DNA of 62,830 nt, counting the filler. It is 18 parts of 18 records of this genome, joined end to end, with 100 filler letters (N's around TTAATTAATTAA, not from the genome) between each part and the next. Parts side by side here need not be neighbours in the genome. Positions count along the whole stretch, not along the records: positions 53,281 to 59,308 come from SRR16133337_13396; 17 more parts are not named here. One strand, written 5' to 3'. Positions 4,700 through 59,410 of this stretch are shown piece by piece (position 1 is the stretch's first letter; every line of letters begins with the position of its first letter). Below the pieces are notes generated by a model. The model did not search any database, had not been told where the DNA came from, and worked only from the letters and a program-made list of their open reading frames with translations. Made by a program: the position numbers and the translations under genes.

Positions 4700-4799
4700 N
4701 NNNNNNNNNNNNNNNNNNNNNNNNNNNNNNNNNNNNNNNNNNNTTAATTAATTAANNNNNNNNNNNNNNNNNNNNNNNNNNNNNNNNNNNNNNNNNNNN
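4700..4799. other. Artificial contig spacer (first of 17)
   Basis: N-run + TTAATTAATTAA + N-run, 100 bp. Other copies start at 8125, 12187, 15687, 18206, 21471, 23574, 28468, 31214, 33352, 35981, 38174, 40286, 44453, 46631, 53181 and 59309. Confidence 0.98.
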
Positions 4800-8124: not shown

Positions 8125-9206
8125 NNNNNNNNNNNNNNNNNNNNNNNNNNNNNNNNNNNNNNNNNNNNTTAATTAATTAANNNNNNNNNNNNNNNNNNNN
8201 NNNNNNNNNNNNNNNNNNNNNNNNATATTACATCGTGTGGTCGTTTATCCTTTCGTGTGTACAGGCAAGCCTGTAACACAATACAAGTAGATTACATGGC
8301 CATTTTGAAGGCCTCCCTCGTAGAGAATCAGCTGAAACAAGTACATGCCAAACTGAAAGCCTCTGACAAGCCAGGCGCGAGATCAAACGTTTCAATGTTC
8401 TTCAATGTAAGTACCGATCATGTACGGTCAGTAAATGGTCTTTTTTCGTTGAAGTTGGCGCGTTACAGTATCAAAATAAGGCCTTCAAAAGTACGTGAAA
8501 ACTAGATTTTGCTGAATTTTTGTTGGTTCGTTGCGCTGTAGCAACTCGTAAACGACAAACAGACATAAACTTTTAGCACTATCCGCTAGAACAAGGCCCC
8601 GACTACCTATTGTCCAAAAATCAACAAAACCCGACCAGTAGTCCTGGAGTTAGGTCGTGGCCACTGGGGGTCTCAAGCCACATGTCTCCTTTTCAACAAA
8701 ATTTTGAAAATGATGTCTTGGTCATAAAATTTATTTACGTGTTTTCCATGTATTTGTAAGTATTTCTCATCGAATGTTTATTTCAAAGTACTTGTTTCTC
8801 ATAAAGTTATGTACTATTGTGGTAGGCACATACTTATTGCATACATTGTACTTCGCAATTTTGAGCTAAAAAAACATGGTGATTCCTCACAATAGGGAGT
8901 TGCTTTTACAAGGAAATTCGAAGCAAGAAACCCTCCCACCGCACCACCACCCCTCTCCCCTCATTTTGGGATTTCAACTATGGGACGAGGTTTTCATTTT
9001 ACAAAGGATTTGTGACCAGAGCCAAAATATTACAAAAACCCTCCCTCATTTCGGGCAAAAAACTATGCTAGAGGAAGAGGGTTTTGCTTTGAAATCTCTG
9101 TACTATGATGGAGGGGGAGTGGGTGTTACAAGTACAACGAAACATATTGGTGGATATTCTGTACAAGGAGTGCGAGAATATCCGTGAATTGTTTCTTTCA
9201 GCCTAC

Positions 9207-11212: not shown

Positions 11213-12913
11213 GTGAATGAAAAGGCCAGTGAAACAAACGCTTGGAGAAAAAGCTAAGCTACTTGGCTCCAGGAACGAGACAACAGTTGACTACACGTAA
11301 GTTACCAGCACGAGCAACTGGTCTGGGTTTTTTTAAAGCCAATTAAATAATCGCCTTGAAGGCACCACATTGCTGCTCTATTTATACACCGCAAAGCTTT
11401 CTCAACGATTGACTCACATTACTTGTCAAGGCCTGGGCTCTGGTAACTCCGCGTTTTCGCTTGTGCAAATGTAAGCGCGCATTGTTGTCACAATTCAAAA
11501 ATTAATTCAAGTCAAATGGTAATCATTTATGTACACAATGGAAATATGCATTTTCATGGGCCAAAGATTATCGTGGCACCTTCCACACATTACAAAAGCT
11601 CACAAAAGCTCACAAAAGCGCCATGCAATAGCTTTTGTAATAGCCGCTGCGTGCACTCAAATGGACCCTCGACAAAGCCTGTACACACCTTCAAACGCAT
11701 TCTCTCGCAAAGTTAGAAAATCAGAATTTTCCAGGGTTTTTTTATCTGTAAAATACTGATCAACCACAGATTTTTACGACCAGCAGAACGATTTTCATTG
11801 TGTGCAATGTAACTTGCCTCTGCAGCCGTGAGATATATGAATGGCAAAATATCATCGCGTGACCCAAAACGTAGTGCTCGAGCCTCTAGTCATATGATAA
11901 TTGAACTGCAAATCAGTGTTTTTTCATGCATTCGGTTTGTGAAAGACATATTCTGGAAAATATAGAAAAGTGAACTGTAGCACGGTATATTCTGAGGTAC
12001 CCCCTCTCCCTCCACCCATTAAAACCCGATAACTGTGCATAAACAAAGGAGTGTGTTTACTATGAGGGGAGGATGTTACAAAATTCTCTGTACTTGCCCA
12101 CCTAACCCACCCACATGTACACCTCAAAACAAGGATGCGGTTTTTACTATGTTTTTGTATCCACACACACACACACACACACACACNNNNNNNNNNNNNN
12201 NNNNNNNNNNNNNNNNNNNNNNNNNNNNNNTTAATTAATTAANNNNNNNNNNNNNNNNNNNNNNNNNNNNNNNNNNNNNNNNNNNNTTAACTATGTTTTG
12301 CCTGTTCACTCATGTTTTTCTCTGACGGTTGGTTTCCAAAATAATTTTGGTTCATTTTCATCGCGACCTCTTAAATCTACAAAAATAGAAACAAGGTCAA
12401 TTACTACCTGTAAAAGATTGTTTCGTGAACTAAACACTTTTGTTTTTTTTAAAAAAAAACATCAAAATACACGTGTTATATGGTTGTGAGCATTGACATT
12501 TGGCACATTTTTACATTAAACCTAGTGGATCTCCATTTTTCAAAATTTTTTTTCTACAAAGGAAAAACGTGTTCATTTAAAAAGTATCAGTCATAAGTGT
12601 ATCGAAATAGTAGTTGCTCCCCTCCCACGCACCTCTTCACACAGCCACCCTATCCGTTTACTCGACTAGATATCACTCTGTGTCAAATGATGTTCAGAAG
12701 GACGCTCGCTATACATGGGAAACATTCTTTCAACATACAATTTCTTCCCAAAAACGAACGAGAAAAAAAATCAGGTATTGATTTTTCATTTTTTCGTTCA
12801 AAACCTAAAATTAATCCCATTCCTTCAATTTTTTTTTTGAAAATGAATAAGATACCTATTGGCTTGTGACCTGATAGTTTTAACGCGAATATTTTTGTTT
12901 TGTATGTTCTCAG

Positions 12914-14710: not shown

Positions 14711-16419
14711 GTAAGTGCTTTCATGGATTCGGGTAGCAGATGGGAGGTGGAGTATGGGTGAAGGGAGTGTTGTGACGTGTGTGGGAGTTGGGGTGGGAGT
14801 TGGTGGGTGGGCGGTGTGATGTGGTTGATGAAAAAAACTACTCGCTTTTCAATTTTGAGTGTGTGTGCGTCTTGGTGGGCGCTATCACTGAGCAAATTGG
14901 TTACCACCAGCTCTAACATTTATCGATTATTGGAGTAGATGCGGATGTTATTTGGCGAAAATTTGATTCTTAATTTTTGTTAGTGAAACTTCACAAACTC
15001 AATAATTTTCGCATGAGACATGAAATACAACTTGAATTTCATCATAATGTTAAGAAAAATATGTTACATCTTTCAAAACATAAAACATAAAAGTGTAAGG
15101 TTTGATACTGTAAATTTCCTGGTCGTAACCCTTCCACCAGCACAACATCCTTCCACTCTCTTCCACACCTCTGCTCTAACTTGAGGCTCGAGTTTTGTTT
15201 CTCCCTCACTCTCAGATCTTAGGGCACTCCGAGATCGTAGGCAGCCCTCCTCACACTCACCGCCACCCCACACGCGCACTTCCATAACATAAATTTGGAG
15301 AGAAGTTAAGAAATTCGATGTGTGTGCAGGGCTGGACATCTGTTATTTGGATTTTTCAGAAATAAGTATCCCTTCTGGTATTTAAACATATGCCTATGAA
15401 AAAATTGGAGTGTAGGACAAAATATAATTTCGAGAGTTTTTTTCATTGTTTTGTTTGTCCAATCCTTTTATGGTGTGGAAATATTCTATCAATACTTAAG
15501 ACTTTTTTTATTGGAAACAAGTTTTTGGGACACCAATTTTTTATTGGTTCATTGGTTTTTTCACAAAAAATGAAGGGTCTTGGTGAGTTTCATTTTTCTG
15601 TAAAATGTCACAGTAATTTTTTACGACTCTAAAAACAAACACAAATTCCCACTATCGAATGTAAAAATTTGCACATGAGTTTTGTCNNNNNNNNNNNNNN
15701 NNNNNNNNNNNNNNNNNNNNNNNNNNNNNNTTAATTAATTAANNNNNNNNNNNNNNNNNNNNNNNNNNNNNNNNNNNNNNNNNNNNATCCCCCTCCACAC
15801 ACACACACACACACACCTACAACATTTGCTCATCCCTAATTCAACCACACACATCCACATCACAGCTAAGTAAGCACACCACATACACCTCCCTAACAAA
15901 GCTTTTTCTTCGACAAAAACGCGGGCATTACCACCCTTGTTTTTTTCAAAAACAGCACTTTTTCTATTTGAAAATCACAAAAAAACTTACGTGTAGGTGG
16001 ATGTGATGGGAGTGATTCATACTCCGTTGGACCATGTATTAAAATTAATAACAGTCTCCTCCACATACGCCCTTCGCCACCCCTTCCACACACACATCAC
16101 ATTACACACCGTTCACTCTCACCTCACGTCTCACACTGCCATCTAGTTTCATTTCACCTGCAGATAATGTGATAATTAATAAACATTGTTTTGTGTTTCG
16201 GATATTTTCGTGACTGTGAAATATATTTCTATCACTTTTTGGTAAGCAGAAATTTACTGTGTCTGTATGAGGGTTTAAATACAGTTTAAATTAACATTTT
16301 AAATCACACTAAGTGTAAGTTGGAGAAGGGGTATGGGGTGGTTGGATGTAACAAAAACATTTGTTTTTCTTTTTTTTCTTACTCATTGAGGTGTTTTAAT
16401 AAATATTTCATCGTTTTAG

Positions 16420-21425: not shown

Positions 21426-21470
21426 GATACTCCGCCCGGGTAGAAACCCGAAAATTTTAGGCTTGCTATT
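21426..21470 (+). mobile_element. Putative IS/MITE terminus, copy A
   Basis: GATACTCCGCCCGGGTAGAAACCCGAAA, nearly identical to 59281-59308, running into the contig end. Confidence 0.6.
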
Positions 21471-46730: not shown

Positions 46731-46760
46731 AAATTCGGGTTTCTAAGGGGACGGAGTATA
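46731..46760 (-). mobile_element. Putative IS/MITE terminus, copy C
   Basis: Reverse complement TATACTCCGTCCCCTTAGAAACCCGAATTT, at the contig start. Confidence 0.6.
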
Positions 46761-53280: not shown

Positions 53281-53362
53281 ATGACATCCAGACTGCAAGA
53301 CAAAAAACGGCATCACGGTATCACTGTTTTACCGTATCACGACAAGACTGCAAGACAAAAAA
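53281..53362 (+). repeat. Short-period (8-bp) intergenic repeat tract with an 18-bp direct repeat
   Basis: AGACTGCAAGACAAAAAA at 53290 and 53345. Octamers ACGGCATC ACGGTATC ACTGTTTT ACCGTATC ACGACAAG ACTGCAAG at 53307-53354. Confidence 0.7.
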
Positions 53363-53408
53363 AGAATCTTACAAATAATAATTCTACGGACTAAAAACGA
53401 TTAAGTAA

Positions 53409-56400
53409 ATGACAAATAAAAAAGTTGACAAAGAATTTGGTTTATCCTCATGGGCTATCCATAATAAAACAACGATTTATGTACTGATCGTTTTGATTCT
53501 ATTTTTAGGAATCTCTGCCTATTTTAGTATGCCAAGAGAGAGTTTTCCGGAAATTAAAGAAACGAAAATCTATATCAGTTCTGTGTATCCTGGTAATACT
53601 GCAGAAGACATCGAAAAACGAATCTCAAATCCTTTAGAAGACAAACTAAAAACGGTTAGTAATGTTGTAGAAATTACCTCAACATCACAAGAAGATTACT
53701 CCATGATCATTGTTGAATTTGATGAAAACATCACCGTAGAACTCGCCAAACAAAAGGTAAAAGACGAAATCGATTCTGAAATTTCTGGAGAAGACTGGCC
53801 CACATTTAATGGAGCAAAAGTAGAACCCAATGTTTTTGAATTAAGCTTATCAGAAGAAATTCCAATTCTTAATATCAATATTTCTGGAGACTATCCTGTC
53901 TCTAAATTAAAAGAGTTTGGAGAGTATTTACAAGATGAAATTGAAGATTTACCTGAAATTAAAAAAGTAGATATCCGTGGAGCCCAAGACAAAGAAGTAG
54001 AAGTTGCTGTAGATATTTACAAGATGATGGCGGCAAAAGTAAGTTTTGAAAACATTATAGATGCAATTAACAAAGGAAATACAACCATGTCGGCAGGTAA
54101 TTTTATTACCAGTGGACAAAGACGCACCATTCGTATTCTAGGAGAAATAGAAAAACCTTCAGATTTAGGAAACTTTGTCATTAAATCAGAAAATAACAAT
54201 CCTATTTATTTAAAAAACGTAGCCGTAATTTCTTTTAAAGAAAAGGAAAGAACCACCTATGCAAGGGAGTATGGCAATCGTGTTGTTATGCTGGATGCTA
54301 AAAAAAGAGCGGGTAAAAATATGGTTGCTGCCGTAGAAAAAATTCAAAAAATTGTAAAGGAGGCAAAACAAAACATTTTTCCAACAGATTTAAAAGTAAC
54401 CATCGCCAACGATCAATCTGTAAAAACAATTGGTCAAGTAGATGATTTGGTAAATAATATCATTTTTGGAGTTATTCTAGTAGTCACTGTGTTGATGTTT
54501 TTCTTAGGATTTAAAAATGCAGTTTTTGTTGGATTTGCAATTCCGATGTCAATGTTTATGTCATTAATGATCTTAAATTTATTAGGATACACAATGAATA
54601 CCATGATTCTTTTTGGCTTGATTATGGGACTCGGAATGCTGGTAGATAACGGTATTGTGGTTGTAGAAAACGTTTACCGCTTAATGGATCAAGAAGGAAT
54701 GGGAAGAGTAGAAGCTGCTAAGAAAGGAATTGGAGAGATTGCTTTCCCAATTATTATTTCTACAGCAACTACAGTTGCCGCATTTATTCCGTTAGGTTTA
54801 TGGCCAGGAATGATGGGAGATTTCATGATTCTTTTACCAATTACACTTTCTACAGTTTTAGGTTCATCTTTATTTGTTGCTATTTTTTTTAACTCAGTAA
54901 TGGTTTCTCAATTTATGAATATTGAAGATAAAAACATGCCTTTAAAGCGCATGGTAATTTTGTCTTCTGGCATGGTCATCATCGGGCTTTTCATTTTACT
55001 TTTCGGAGATGTATATCGTGCCTTAGGGAGTATTATGGTATTTACAGCGATGATGCTTTGGGTCTATAGACTTGGATTGCGTAAAATAACTCATTATTTT
55101 CAAACAAAAATACTGACTCGTTTAGAAAATTGGTACGAAAGACAATTAAGACGTTCCTTATCAGGTTGGAGAGCTTATCTATTAACTTTGGGAACCTTTT
55201 TATTATTGATTGTTGCCTTTATGACATTTGGAATTTCTGTAAGCAAACAACGAACAAAAATTGAATTTTTCCCAGATAACAAACCCAATCAAATTATTGT
55301 CTATATCGAATACCCACAAGGAACAGCTATCGAAAAAACCAACACCATTACAAAGGCAATTGAGAAGAAAGTTTTTGCTGTTTTAAACGATAAAATGTAT
55401 ATAGATGCTGGGTATAACTTTTTGGTAGAAAGTACCGTTTCTCAAGTAGGCGAAGGTGCAGGAAACCCTCAAACGGATGGAGGATCTGCTGCAGAAATGC
55501 CTCATAAAGGAAAAATTACGGCTTCTATGCGAGAGTATAAATACAGACGCGGACAAGATAGTGAACTCTTAAGACAAAAGGTTCAGAAAGCTTTGGTTGG
55601 AATTTATCCTGGAGTTTTAATTTCTGTCGAAAAAGATCAAAACGGACCTCCGGCAGGATCTCCTATTAATATAGAACTAGAAGGAAAGGATTATGCAGCA
55701 TTAATTGAAGCGGCAGAAAAAATGCGTAATTTCATCAATACAAAAAATATCGCAGGTATCGATGAATTAAAAATTGATGTGAATAGAGATAAACCTGGAA
55801 TGCAAGTTGTTGTTGATAGAAAAAAAGCGGGTGAGTTTGGTGTCGGCACGGGTCAAGTGGGACAACAACTTCGAAATTCCATTTTTGGTAACAAAGCGGG
55901 AGTCTATAAAGAAGATGGAGAAGATTATGATATTTATGTTCGTTTTAATAAAGAAAATAGATACAATAAGAGTGCTCTTTTTAATCAAAAAATAACGTTT
56001 AGAGACCCCTCTACTGGTAAAATCAAAGAAATTCCTGTATCTGCCCTAGCGAAACAAAATAATAATTCTGGATTTAGTGCCATTAAACACAAAGATGTCA
56101 AAAGAGTTGTATCTGTCTATTCTGCTTTATCGCCCGGATTTACAGATGCTGGAGCTGTGGTAAATCAGATTCAAAATGAAATGCAAAATTTTAAAGAATT
56201 TCCAAAAGGAATTCAAATTGATTATACAGGTCAAATAGAAGAACAAAATAAACAGATGGCCTTTTTAATGAGTGCTTTTTTTAAAGGTTTAGCGTTGATT
56301 TTTTTCATTTTAATATTCCAATTTAATTCTGTTTCCAAACCCGCAATTATTATGTTGGCAATCTTTTTAAGTTTGATTGGAGTTTTTGGAGGCATTGTTA

Positions 56401-56870
56401 TTACAGGAAAACCCTTTGTTATTATGATGACCATGATGGGAATTATTTCGTTAGCAGGAATCGTAGTCAATAATGGGGTTGTCTTATTAGATTACATACA
56501 ATTATTAATCGATAGAAAAAAGGTGGAACTGGGGGTAAACGAAGAGGATTATTTAGACACGAAAACAGTATTTGAAAGTATTGTACTTGCTGGTAAAGCA
56601 CGTTTACGTCCCGTATTGTTAACGGCAATTACAACCATTTTAGGATTAATCCCCCTTGCAATAGGTTTCAACATAAACTTCTTTACGCTGTTTGATGAAT
56701 TTGATCCAAATATTTATTTTGGTGGAGATAATGTTATCTTTTGGGGCCCCTTAGCATGGACTGTTATTTATGGGCTTTTTGTAGCTACCTTTTTAACTCT
56801 AATTATAGTACCCGTTTTATTCTTTTTAATCACAAAATTTAAAATGTGGTTACGCGTAAAAATGGTATAA
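53409..56870 (+). CDS. RND efflux transporter permease (AcrB/AcrD/AcrF family)
   Basis: 1153 aa with two TM halves; GMLVDNGIVVVEN, GIVVNNGVVL, RLRPVLLTA. Confidence 0.95.
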   Translation: MTNKKVDKEFGLSSWAIHNKTTIYVLIVLILFLGISAYFSMPRESFPEIKETKIYISSVYPGNTAEDIEKRISNPLEDKLKTVSNVVEITSTSQEDYSMIIVEFDENITVELAKQKVKDEIDSEISGEDWPTFNGAKVEPNVFELSLSEEIPILNINISGDYPVSKLKEFGEYLQDEIEDLPEIKKVDIRGAQDKEVEVAVDIYKMMAAKVSFENIIDAINKGNTTMSAGNFITSGQRRTIRILGEIEKPSDLGNFVIKSENNNPIYLKNVAVISFKEKERTTYAREYGNRVVMLDAKKRAGKNMVAAVEKIQKIVKEAKQNIFPTDLKVTIANDQSVKTIGQVDDLVNNIIFGVILVVTVLMFFLGFKNAVFVGFAIPMSMFMSLMILNLLGYTMNTMILFGLIMGLGMLVDNGIVVVENVYRLMDQEGMGRVEAAKKGIGEIAFPIIISTATTVAAFIPLGLWPGMMGDFMILLPITLSTVLGSSLFVAIFFNSVMVSQFMNIEDKNMPLKRMVILSSGMVIIGLFILLFGDVYRALGSIMVFTAMMLWVYRLGLRKITHYFQTKILTRLENWYERQLRRSLSGWRAYLLTLGTFLLLIVAFMTFGISVSKQRTKIEFFPDNKPNQIIVYIEYPQGTAIEKTNTITKAIEKKVFAVLNDKMYIDAGYNFLVESTVSQVGEGAGNPQTDGGSAAEMPHKGKITASMREYKYRRGQDSELLRQKVQKALVGIYPGVLISVEKDQNGPPAGSPINIELEGKDYAALIEAAEKMRNFINTKNIAGIDELKIDVNRDKPGMQVVVDRKKAGEFGVGTGQVGQQLRNSIFGNKAGVYKEDGEDYDIYVRFNKENRYNKSALFNQKITFRDPSTGKIKEIPVSALAKQNNNSGFSAIKHKDVKRVVSVYSALSPGFTDAGAVVNQIQNEMQNFKEFPKGIQIDYTGQIEEQNKQMAFLMSAFFKGLALIFFILIFQFNSVSKPAIIMLAIFLSLIGVFGGIVITGKPFVIMMTMMGIISLAGIVVNNGVVLLDYIQLLIDRKKVELGVNEEDYLDTKTVFESIVLAGKARLRPVLLTAITTILGLIPLAIGFNINFFTLFDEFDPNIYFGGDNVIFWGPLAWTVIYGLFVATFLTLIIVPVLFFLITKFKMWLRVKMV

Positions 56871-56904
56871 ATGTCCTTTAGCCTGTTTTTAGTTACTGAC
56901 TTAT

Positions 56905-56948
56905 GCAGAAAAAGAATTTGTGAAATCTGCGGATCTCTGTGGGAGAAA
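56905..56948 (+). repeat. Truncated third copy of the GxxExxY-associated hairpin, with the loop in inverted orientation
   Basis: GCAGAAAAAGAATTTGTGAAATCTGCGGATCTCTGTGGGAGAAA. The loop AAAAAGAA is the reverse complement of the TTCTTTTT loop in the other two copies. Confidence 0.7.
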
Positions 56949-56956
56949 TAAAAGAA

Positions 56957-56980
56957 ATGATGACAGAAAACAACCTTTAA
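56957..56980 (+). pseudogene. Internally deleted ('empty') GxxExxY copy, MMTENNL*
   Basis: ATGATGACAGAAAAC-AACCTTTAA equals the start of the 57065 gene joined in frame to its end across a shared AAAC. Confidence 0.85.
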
Positions 56981-57060
56981 TAAAAAGTTTCCCGCAGATC
57001 TCGCAGATTTTCGCAGATTCTTTTTCTGAGGATCTCTGCGAAATCTGCGGGAGAAAAAAA
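56968..57060 (+). repeat. 93-bp direct repeat, copy 1, containing a ~65-nt imperfect hairpin
   Basis: TCCCGCAGAT CTCGCAGAT TTTCGCAGA-loop-TCTGAGGATC TCTGCGAA ATCTGCGGGA. Four mismatches versus 57433-57525. Confidence 0.93.
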
Positions 57061-57064
57061 AGAA

Positions 57065-57445
57065 ATGATGACAGAAAACGATATCTCATATAAAATAAGA
57101 GGAATCATATTTAACATCTACAATACACTTGGTCCAGGCTTATTAGAATCCGTTTATGTAGCCGCTTTTGTGTTTGAATTAAAAAAAGAAGGTATAAACG
57201 TTAAGAAAGAAGTACCTGTACCCGTTTATTATGAAAACGAAAAATTAGAAGTTGGTTTTAGATTAGATTTGTTAGTTGAAGACAAGGTAATTATTGAAGT
57301 AAAATCCGTAGAACATTTAGCAGAAGTACATCATAAACAAGTATTGACCTATTTAAAACTCACAAAATTAAAACTAGCTATATTGGTGAATTTCAATGTA
57401 GACGATATAAAATCAGGAATCTTTAGAAAGGTAAACAACCTTTAA
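57065..57445 (+). CDS. GxxExxY protein (PD-(D/E)XK-like nuclease fold, PDDEXK_3)
   Basis: 126 aa; LGPGLLESVY signature, FRLDLLVEDKVIIEVKS, QVLTYL, LVNFN. Confidence 0.95.
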   Translation: MMTENDISYKIRGIIFNIYNTLGPGLLESVYVAAFVFELKKEGINVKKEVPVPVYYENEKLEVGFRLDLLVEDKVIIEVKSVEHLAEVHHKQVLTYLKLTKLKLAILVNFNVDDIKSGIFRKVNNL

Positions 57446-57525
57446 TAAAAAATTTCCCGCAGATCTCGCAGATTTTTGCAGATTCTTTTTCTGCGGATCT
57501 CTGTGAAATCTGCGGGAGAAAAAAA
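57433..57525 (+). repeat. 93-bp direct repeat, copy 2, containing the same hairpin
   Basis: Offset 465 bp from copy 1, 89/93 identical. Begins within the last codons of the GxxExxY gene. Confidence 0.93.
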
Positions 57526-57622
57526 ATAGATGCTATTTCCAAAATGACAGCTTGTAAATTCTTAATTTTTTAAACCTTTCCCCATCAATTCTAAAACCCT
57601 AAAAACTTTTACAATCTTTTGG

Positions 57623-59308
<1,686 letters not shown>

Positions 59309-59410
59309 NNNNNNNNNNNNNNNNNNNNNNNNNNNNNNNNNNNNNNNNNNNNTTAATTAATTAANNNNNNNNNNNNNNNNNNNNNNNNNNNNNNNNNNNN
59401 NNNNNNNNCC

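Follow-up and report, generated by a model that had tools for sequence, protein, structure and literature searches.

A GxxExxY nuclease gene with inverted arms of repeated units that behaves like a little-known type of mobile DNA in Bacteroidota

Repetitive extragenic palindromic (REP) elements and REPINs are hairpin-forming repeats that occur together with RAYT transposases, which are Y1 HUH enzymes resembling those of IS200/IS605. I-Ssp6803I is a homing endonuclease of the PD-(D/E)XK type. The locus described here is reminiscent of both systems. It lies in a stretch of DNA of 62,830 nucleotides (nt), the whole of which is termed the window, and it consists of a GxxExxY gene, encoding a small protein of the PD-(D/E)XK type, among hairpin-like arms of repeated units between the gene for a resistance-nodulation-division (RND) efflux permease and pyrG. 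The gene together with its arms is referred to as the cassette. It also recalls the intervening sequences (IVSs) of 23S rRNA that carry an open reading frame (ORF): these are small ORFs (S23p, a four-helix bundle) in inverted arms, placed within transcribed DNA, which leave host function intact and are regarded as selfish. For the family of the gene itself, the table of a 2012 superfamily survey gives the function of PDDEXK_3 as ‘Unknown’ (PMC3424549), and where PMC8934634 mentions GxxExxY it is as a mere domain call. No published description of the arms or of a GxxExxY function was found in full-text literature, supplementary files excluded. The gene-plus-arms package behaves, as judged from sequence comparison, like a little-known type of mobile DNA present in many Bacteroidota genomes. 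It is proposed, with a probability of about one half, that the locus is one copy of a widespread and apparently undescribed family of selfish cassettes, in which the nuclease would read its own phased units and the ensuing break would let host recombination act.

The likeness to each described system is accompanied by differences. As in REP/RAYT systems, a single-copy gene is flanked by hairpin-forming repeats and gene-less copies are found elsewhere (in genomes G073 and G015); unlike them, the cassette encodes a PD-(D/E)XK and not an HUH enzyme, is present in a few to ~30 copies per genome, and has arms of three or four phased units, each paralog having its own unit variant. With free-standing homing endonuclease genes it has in common a small nuclease gene interrupting a near-palindromic site (where the gene lies inside one arm pair), a selfish logic and apparent horizontal spread, but it is found outside introns and inteins, appears to arrive at arm-less sites, and its arms travel with the gene. 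The inverted terminal arms, the gene-less forms with internal deletions and the insertion polymorphism between relatives are shared with miniature inverted-repeat transposable elements (MITEs) and insertion sequences (ISs), although the cassette has no DDE or other known transposase, and an ATGA in genome G006 is at most a possible target-site duplication. In contrast to a 23S rRNA IVS, the cassette is located between the RND gene and pyrG and not in helix 25 or 45 of the rRNA, and its cargo is a PD-(D/E)XK nuclease; in addition, its units, of consensus CRCRRAK, are absent around four-helix-bundle genes, and it bears no RNA signature on the sense strand. Lastly, GxxExxY proteins share fold and catalytic motif with Cas4 and restriction-endonuclease-like minimal nucleases (4ic1, 3ijm), whilst the Fe-S cluster module and the CRISPR context of Cas4 are missing from the cassette protein and its locus.

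The architecture of the cassette is conserved well beyond the window. A scan of one genome per species yielded 80 loci, the products of which share 62-92% identity with the cassette protein, in Flavobacteriales, Bacteroidales, Cytophagales and Chitinophagales, and in one Pyrinomonadaceae metagenome-assembled genome (MAG). Within 100 nt of these genes GCAGA occurs at ~1.2 per 100 nt on both sides and TCTGC at 0.59 per 100 nt upstream and 1.34 downstream; beyond 500 nt the background of either is ~0.1 per 100 nt, so that the enrichment beside the gene is ~10-fold. When an arm is defined as at least two units 7-12 nt apart, 67 of 81 loci (the 80 homologous loci and that of the window) have one within 100 nt of the gene. 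The commonest arrangement of the nearest arms, left arm-gene-right arm (L-gene-R), places the gene inside one arm pair and is seen at 23 loci. The reverse arrangement (R-gene-L), in which arm pairs stand on both sides of the gene, as they do in the window, is found at 13, and the remaining loci have two right arms (7), two left arms (3), arms on one side only (21) or on neither side (14). Long tandem arrays of arm pairs also occur, for example at L004, L042, L050, L059 and L068, and contain the same gene or its remnants, with no varied cargo. Extra copies of the 5' or 3' end of the locus's own gene stand between arms at 7 of the 81 loci, and their deletion end points differ; gene-less arm pairs therefore originate again and again, through ordinary deletion, from units that carry the gene.

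More distant paralogs are built in the same way from other units. The genomes G001, G003 and G004 each contain 3-5 matches to the profile TIGR04256 (GxxExxY), and nine paralogs from them, 29-56% identical, lie inside inverted arms whose units are CGCAA, CACAAAG, CACAGTG, CACAGAG and CACGGATTA (CACGGAT). Complementarity between upstream and downstream flanks beats all 100 shuffles for six of the nine, is reached by 4-5 of 100 shuffles for two, and fails for one. In the phylum of G004 the family is present in 25 of 41 sampled genomes, with 1-11 matches each, many of which are fragments with stops. Thirty loci were fetched from this sample, 29 of which could be tested; 19 of the 29 beat all 60 shuffles. 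The arms around these paralogs have three or four units, and every unit read fits CRCRRAK. Searched as C[AG]C[AG][AG]A[GT], this motif is found around the 30 diverse genes at 1.24 per 100 nt on the forward strand in the upstream 150 nt and, as its reverse complement, at 1.22 per 100 nt in the downstream 150 nt, against 0.19 per 100 nt in the far flanks with both strands summed. The association of GxxExxY genes with such hairpins, which the initial annotation had put forward as a test of its proposal, thus holds at most clade loci and for about two thirds of the testable diverse paralogs. A GxxExxY gene tied to a conserved, family-specific flank motif provides a first concrete hypothesis of function for a very large family, with 16,252 members at E<=1e-3 when each 50%-identity cluster is represented once.

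Inverted arms of units are not confined to GxxExxY genes. The profile TIGR02436, that of a four-helix-bundle family named after 23S rRNA intervening sequences, has 15 matches in G001, 3 in G003 and 11 in G004, and genes of this family (L120-L139) also lie in unit-built inverted arms, 7 of 19 beating all 100 shuffles. Their units are TGTTTA, AAGCTGT and AATGA, with arms as long as 69 nt at L138, and CRCRRAK occurs around the 19 genes at 0.00-0.11 per 100 nt, which is background. The architecture is common to two unrelated cargo families, with the unit sequence following the cargo. Under the more far-reaching version of the proposal given below, cassettes of the four-helix-bundle (IVS) type would form a class of their own alongside, recognised by a different protein. 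The parallel bears on the origin of the ORF-bearing IVSs of rRNA.

The cassette protein passes the curated cut-offs of both TIGR04256 (E 3.4e-41; 140.3 bits against 35) and PF13366, PDDEXK_3 (E 1.6e-40; 138.5 bits against 22), in agreement with its first assignment as a GxxExxY, PD-(D/E)XK-like protein. Beyond these two no family matched it, and in particular no transposase or Y1 HUH family. The name-giving motif is G25-L-L-E28-S-V-Y31. Twelve columns do not vary among 43 sequences, the most distant of which are 29% identical (G23, G25, E28, Y31, D68, E78, K80, Q92, Y96, L107, N109 and F110), and the catalytic-type residues E28, D68, E78 and K80 are all intact in the cassette protein. Internal stops interrupt only 2 of the 80 homologous genes. 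These two, at L046:3001-3378 (two in-frame stops) and L055:3001-3375 (one), are probably pseudogenes.

An AlphaFold2 model of the 126-residue protein (predicted local distance difference test score, pLDDT, 96.3; predicted template modelling score, pTM, 0.90) points to a minimal PD-(D/E)XK nuclease fold, with helices at 4-22, 28-41 and 87-100 and strands at 46-56, 59-71, 75-80 and 104-109. The top Foldseek match of the model is Cas4 SSO0001 (E 2e-4, TM 0.56), while VIA-align 2 ranks 3ijm first (Z 8.2), followed by BpuSI (7.5), CinB (7.3) and Cas4 (4ic1, 7.2), a range that the tool rates as common. By sequence no PDB chain matched at E<=1. Among the best 150 representatives of the family, 19 (P0008, P0012, P0014 and P0015 among them) are 240-295 amino acids long and contain two matched stretches; these tandem GxxExxY fusions hint at dimerisation, and suggest that the single-domain protein works as a dimer.

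Several lines of evidence concern mobility. When the cassette of the window is compared with L001, L002, L003 and L005, similarity sets in at the outer left-arm edge (TTTCCCGCAGA) and breaks off just past the GGGAGAAAAA of the right arm, and the flanks beyond are unrelated. By the criterion applied to IS elements and MITEs, the cassette has terminal inverted repeats, in that the outer edges of the arms delimit the shared segment. At least five synteny groups can be distinguished among the 81 loci. In related genomes, occupied and empty versions of the same site were found in two cases. At a site between the genes for an ATPase and a permease of the ATP-binding cassette (ABC) type, for which 15 of 81 sampled genomes of the family of G004 matched at E<=1e-20, the cassette directly follows the stop codon of the ATPase gene in L030, G022 and G006. 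The site is empty in G060 and G043, where the two genes overlap by ATGA, and in G011 and G046, where 14-26 nt separate them; seven other genomes have unrelated inserts of 65-334 nt. The second site extends from the terminator of an upstream gene (X) to the start of a downstream gene, taken here as that of dGTPase (dgt). This site, which holds the cassette in Gillisia, is occupied in L016 and G004 and empty in G015 (L193, G015:C6:660900-661560), in which only 38 nt are present between flanks 77-81% identical. These 38 nt include a GCAGAT...ATCTGT mini-palindrome, GCAGATgaaatgatccATCTGT, perhaps the last unit left of a cassette that was lost.

Comparison with a neighbouring host gene points in the same direction. 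The nuclease is 92, 90, 87 and 85% identical in amino acid sequence to its counterparts in G001, G002, G003 and G005, as against 72, 69, 69 and 74% for pyrG. At identical residues, third-codon identity is 0.66 for the nuclease and 0.52 for pyrG in the comparison with G001 (Fisher p 0.008), and 0.61 and 0.42 in that with G003 (Fisher p 0.0007). In the Pyrinomonadaceae MAG the GCAGA arms are alike and the gene is 75% identical, whilst pyrG is 54% identical. The limits of similarity at the arm edges, the many contexts, the occupied and empty sites and the contrast with pyrG together indicate gain, loss and horizontal transfer of a unit bounded by its arms. A ‘Gammaproteobacteria’ MAG (L048, genome G246) was also considered as a cross-phylum case and dropped, its pyrG being 67% identical to that of the window, like Bacteroidota; the taxon label or bin of this MAG is doubtful.

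A scheme can be drawn up on this basis. The cassette consists of a minimal PD-(D/E)XK gene of ~380 bp between left and right arms in inverted orientation, each arm comprising three or four CRCRRAK units (here CGCAGAT) about one helical turn apart. The nuclease would bind several units per arm as duplex DNA and cut at or near the arms, after which the segment between the arms would be copied or moved by host recombination. Arm pairs without a gene arise by internal deletion and could then persist or multiply. The copy in the window, which has the less common layout, arose by tandem duplication of gene and arm followed by a loss of 357 nt from the first copy. The architecture and its conservation across the family, the family-specific unit consensus, the occupied and empty sites, the limits of similarity at the arm edges and the conserved catalytic residues are observed; the binding of the nuclease to its own arms, its part in driving movement and the mode of integration are all inferred. 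A more far-reaching version is advanced tentatively and is rather unlikely: the ~125-residue GxxExxY nuclease would itself mobilise a minimal element of a new class, with paralogs tuned to their own unit variants, and with gene-less arm pairs and single-arm arrays as non-autonomous derivatives. The cassette points to a possible new route of mobility, in which selfish DNA can lie between coupled operon genes with no known transposase, integrase or HUH enzyme.

A number of observations weigh against the proposal. Fourteen of the 81 loci lack an arm in the 100 nt beside the gene, 10 of the 29 diverse paralogs are equalled or surpassed by at least one shuffle, and the two layouts L-gene-R and R-gene-L coexist, neither being derivable from the other by a simple step. 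The empty ABC sites have no arms, and pure homing into pre-existing arms therefore cannot explain the arrival of the cassette there. In G006 ATGA is present on both sides of the cassette, but the same picture would result if selection kept the stop and the start codon intact. The third-codon excess is small in the comparison with G005 (0.54 against 0.49). For the copy of the window itself, no empty RND-pyrG site was found among the listed matches in 201 sampled genomes of the family of G001 (best DNA identity 77-80%), in which the 3' end of the RND gene and pyrG lie on different contigs or far apart; at the 12 best loci, 11 with the RND 3' end and one with pyrG, no arms stand beside the matched gene. 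The public run X1 showed no joint of an excised form or circle, but it consists of contigs only, from which rare forms drop out. The model of the protein has no separate DNA-recognition domain. Since four-helix-bundle genes have the same general architecture, the arms could serve a process that is independent of the cargo protein, and the unit consensus could be shared because gene and arms descend together from a common ancestor, and not because of recognition.

The foremost alternative, which is unlikely but has the most to recommend it, is that the cassette is an IVS-like element acting at the level of RNA. The arms would pair in the transcript and RNase III would cut the stem, making the insert harmless inside operons, as for 23S rRNA IVSs; the nuclease would be cargo, and movement would be due to something else. 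That the commonest layout (23 of 81) puts the gene in the loop of one arm pair agrees with this view, as do the position of cassettes between translationally coupled operon genes and the occurrence of the same kind of arms around four-helix-bundle genes, the family encoded in 23S rRNA IVSs (7 of 19 beating all shuffles). The Coxiella IVS, with an S23p ORF in helix 45, is described as selfish (PMC4990558). A further point in its favour is that no T-tract of a terminator follows the hairpins on the + strand; they are followed by GAGAAAAAAAA, and terminator-like sites are on the - strand only. Lacking this T-run, the hairpins do not qualify as intrinsic terminators on the + strand.

The arms themselves accord better with a role as DNA. 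In 98 arm pairs, aligned without a folding program, G.T mismatches, which would be wobble pairs on the sense strand, number 90 against 131 A.C, so that there is no sign in these pairs of selection on a stem in the sense RNA. The commonest mismatch is A.A, with 249 cases at the unit centre, weakening every unit of the stem: the central base is A in 74-83% of 96 distinct left arms, and 95 right arms, taken on the opposite strand, show A at this position in 48-63% and T in 25-36%. Arms also occur singly in direct arrays, in which they have no partner (G003, G073). Single arms and systematic A.A mismatches mean that hairpin folding as such, which the initial annotation had taken to be the recognised feature, probably does not serve as the signal; units read as duplex DNA fit better, although folding may still play a part. 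Moreover, CRCRRAK is kept in paralogs down to ~30% identity, whereas mere complementarity would permit drift.

Gene-less arms are relevant to this and to the remaining alternatives. Triple-unit arms give 26 hits in G003 (5.2 Mb) and 9 in G004 (4.0 Mb), with 1 and 0 for the reversed control; in both genomes they are confined to few loci, mostly beside the cognate gene. At L093 (G003:C1:787188-787490) and L094 (G003:C1:1270673-1270841) tandem left arms alone are present, with neither right arm nor gene, as repeats of CCCGCAGATTACGCAGATTTTCGCAGA and a ~30-nt spacer with a period of ~56 nt. These two arrays read as spurious ORFs (e.g. ...STDYADFRR...PQITQIFAEG); arms in general yield spurious small ORFs, and such hairpin repeats may break short-read assemblies. 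G073 has ~29 arm hits on at least eight contigs and one cognate gene. Its 13 gene-less loci that were read are mostly single arms in direct arrays, among them L141-L149, where right arms (TCTGCGnnnnTCTGCGnnnTCTGCGGGAGAAA) recur singly with a period of 110-350 nt together with a second recurring module (…CGATAATTGCCATTTT…), a composite repeat that the cassette model does not explain. The loose triple pattern, GCWGA three times, also catches coding repeats and is found in 44 of 101 genomes, many of the hits being chance-like, and only clear CGCWGAT-type hits were read.

A second alternative, distinctly improbable, regards the gene as a small nuclease of benefit to the host, in defence or repair, with the arms as operator or insulator sites, carried within larger islands and not mobile by itself. 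Purifying selection is indeed strong (12 invariant columns, and only 2 of the 80 genes broken), groups of genera keep the cassette at the same positions, one synteny group keeps its downstream gene across orders (L001, L002, L003, L027, L034 and L036), and the right arm with an A-rich tract lies 15-20 nt before the start codon of the cassette gene or of the next host gene. Islands, however, would not predict similarity that stops at the arm edges, and insertion between overlapping operon genes, gene-less arm copies and tandem arrays, and the variety of contexts, with at least five synteny groups among the 81 loci, are likewise against it. Searches of phages and plasmids also weigh against it: the cassette protein has no tblastn match in INPHARED phages, and the plasmid matches are 8 records, all below 60% identity and mostly large replicons.

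The initial annotation had compared the locus with attC cassettes and REP/RAYT systems, and movement by a recombinase or HUH transposase encoded elsewhere would account for hairpin-forming sites around a small, promoterless-looking gene and for the gene-less copies dispersed in some genomes. This explanation is very improbable. There is no integrase or HUH gene in the 6-kb contig of the locus, the units are unlike attC R/L boxes, the arrays hold the same gene or remnants in place of varied cargo, and the unit consensus follows the cargo family. The likeness to attC cassettes was not upheld, there being no integrase-like ORF in 6,028 nt and no resemblance to the attC core, although no dedicated attC/IntI search was run. 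That to REP/RAYT systems stands in part: in G073 gene-less arms outnumber the gene (~13 extra loci to one gene), but in G003 and G004 arms are at few loci and almost only beside the cognate gene. Least likely of all is a local event or artefact, in which a spacer rich in repeats was duplicated in tandem or misassembled and nothing of wider meaning follows. In its favour, the assembly is very fragmented (18 contigs of 2-6 kb), the sole contig of public reads that spans the locus is probably its source, and the 465-nt periodicity is indeed a local duplication. Against it, the repeat copies differ at 6 of 100 positions and the architecture recurs in 80 independent assemblies, complete chromosomes among them.

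The features of the locus are collected in Table 1. The window is made up of 18 contigs of 2.0-6.5 kb joined by artificial linkers, and gene neighbourhood across the linkers is therefore meaningless. The true context of the locus is 53281-59308 only, and the statement that no transposase or integrase ORF is nearby, made at the outset, holds for those 6,028 nt.

Table 1. Features of the cassette locus and its surroundings, in window coordinates
Feature	Position	Strand	Basis or remarks
Artificial linkers	4700-4799, 8125-8224, ... 59309-59408 (17 places)		N44-TTAATTAATTAA-N44
RND-type efflux permease gene (upstream host gene, outside the cassette; RND name from earlier annotation)	53409..56870	+	1153-aa ORF
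Truncated arm pair: inner left GCAGA unit, 7-nt loop, full right arm ending GGGAG	56905..56944	+	Inverted-repeat pairs
Leader and decayed gene copy	56945..56981	+	Direct repeat 56936-56986 vs 57044-57094, plus sequence reading
Mini-ORF (MMTENNL*), 24 nt in the decayed copy	56957-56980	+	ATGATGACAGAAAAC / AACCTTTAA
Direct repeat copy 1, 100 nt: last 13 nt of decayed copy, arm pair 1, A-rich leader, ATG	56968..57067	+	
Complete arm pair 1: three GCAGA units (left), 7-nt loop, three TCTGN units (right)	56988..57054	+	-40.8 kcal/mol, z -6.9
GxxExxY gene, 126 aa	57065..57445	+	TIGR04256 and PF13366 profile matches
Direct repeat copy 2, 100 nt	57433..57532	+	94% identical to copy 1, 465 nt away
Complete arm pair 2	57453..57519	+	-42.6 kcal/mol, z -7.4
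pyrG (CTP synthase), downstream host gene	57670..59298	+	542-aa ORF; 150-nt spacer after second hairpin

The order of partial hairpin, mini-ORF, hairpin, GxxExxY gene and hairpin between the two host genes was found where it had first been placed. The palindromes of ~65 nt with three mirrored units, noted then, are 67-nt hairpins, and for both complete copies none of 200 shuffles folds as well; the units within each arm are spaced 9 and 10 nt. Folding of the truncated pair at 56905-56944 is no better than that of shuffles (z -0.4). The two-unit arm pattern occurs five times in the 62.8 kb of the window, in every case at the cassette locus, against 0.40 expected. The direct repeats, given as 93 bp with four mismatches, could be extended, four of the six differing positions being in the first ~93 nt.

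The mini-ORF consists of the first 15 nt and the last 9 nt of the gene, an in-frame deletion of 357 nt with an AAAC microhomology at the break points, and the spacing of 108 between 56936-56986 and 57044-57094 equals 465-357. Because the mini-ORF joins the two ends of the gene, the locus is a tandem duplication of gene and arm pair in which the first copy has decayed. The initial annotation had taken the 465-bp gene-plus-hairpin segment for the moving unit. That segment is a local tandem duplication, the first copy of which then lost 357 nt, and not the mobile unit; the segment common to different loci is the one bounded by the outer left and right arms. A single 6,028-nt contig of X1 spans the locus with no differences, but is probably the window's own source, and hence no independent proof against misassembly. 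Eighteen further short contigs of that run match parts of the hairpins only, with 90-95% likeness and other flanks, and the source sample therefore probably has more arm copies.

With regard to transcription, a candidate -7 box, TACTTTTG, lies at 57646-57653, 17 nt before the start of pyrG, and fits TAnnTTTG, the Bacteroidota -7 promoter box, so that transcripts running through the cassette need not be the source of pyrG expression. A scan for sigma-70 promoters gave 5 sites where 4.1 are expected and is uninformative. Rfam returned no rRNA match on the contig, and a snoRNA match of 25.6 bits, against a gathering score of 55, was taken as chance.

Some further observations were made in passing. 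The loci L001, L002, L003, L027, L034 and L036, which come from three orders, have in common a downstream ORF of ~580 codons whose product starts with MKIPLNEFEQLIDEKILKRG and whose start codon is ~15 nt past the right arm of the cassette. The two may travel together, or this gene may owe its leader to the cassette. Within the window, contig ends at 12157-12186 and 15787-15816 are (CA)n runs. Three other contig ends, at 21441-21452, 46734-46745 (- strand) and 59296-59307, carry the motif TAGAAACCCGAA with common flanks (TATACTCCG...); it looks like a second family of palindromic intergenic repeats at which the assembly broke, one copy being directly after pyrG.

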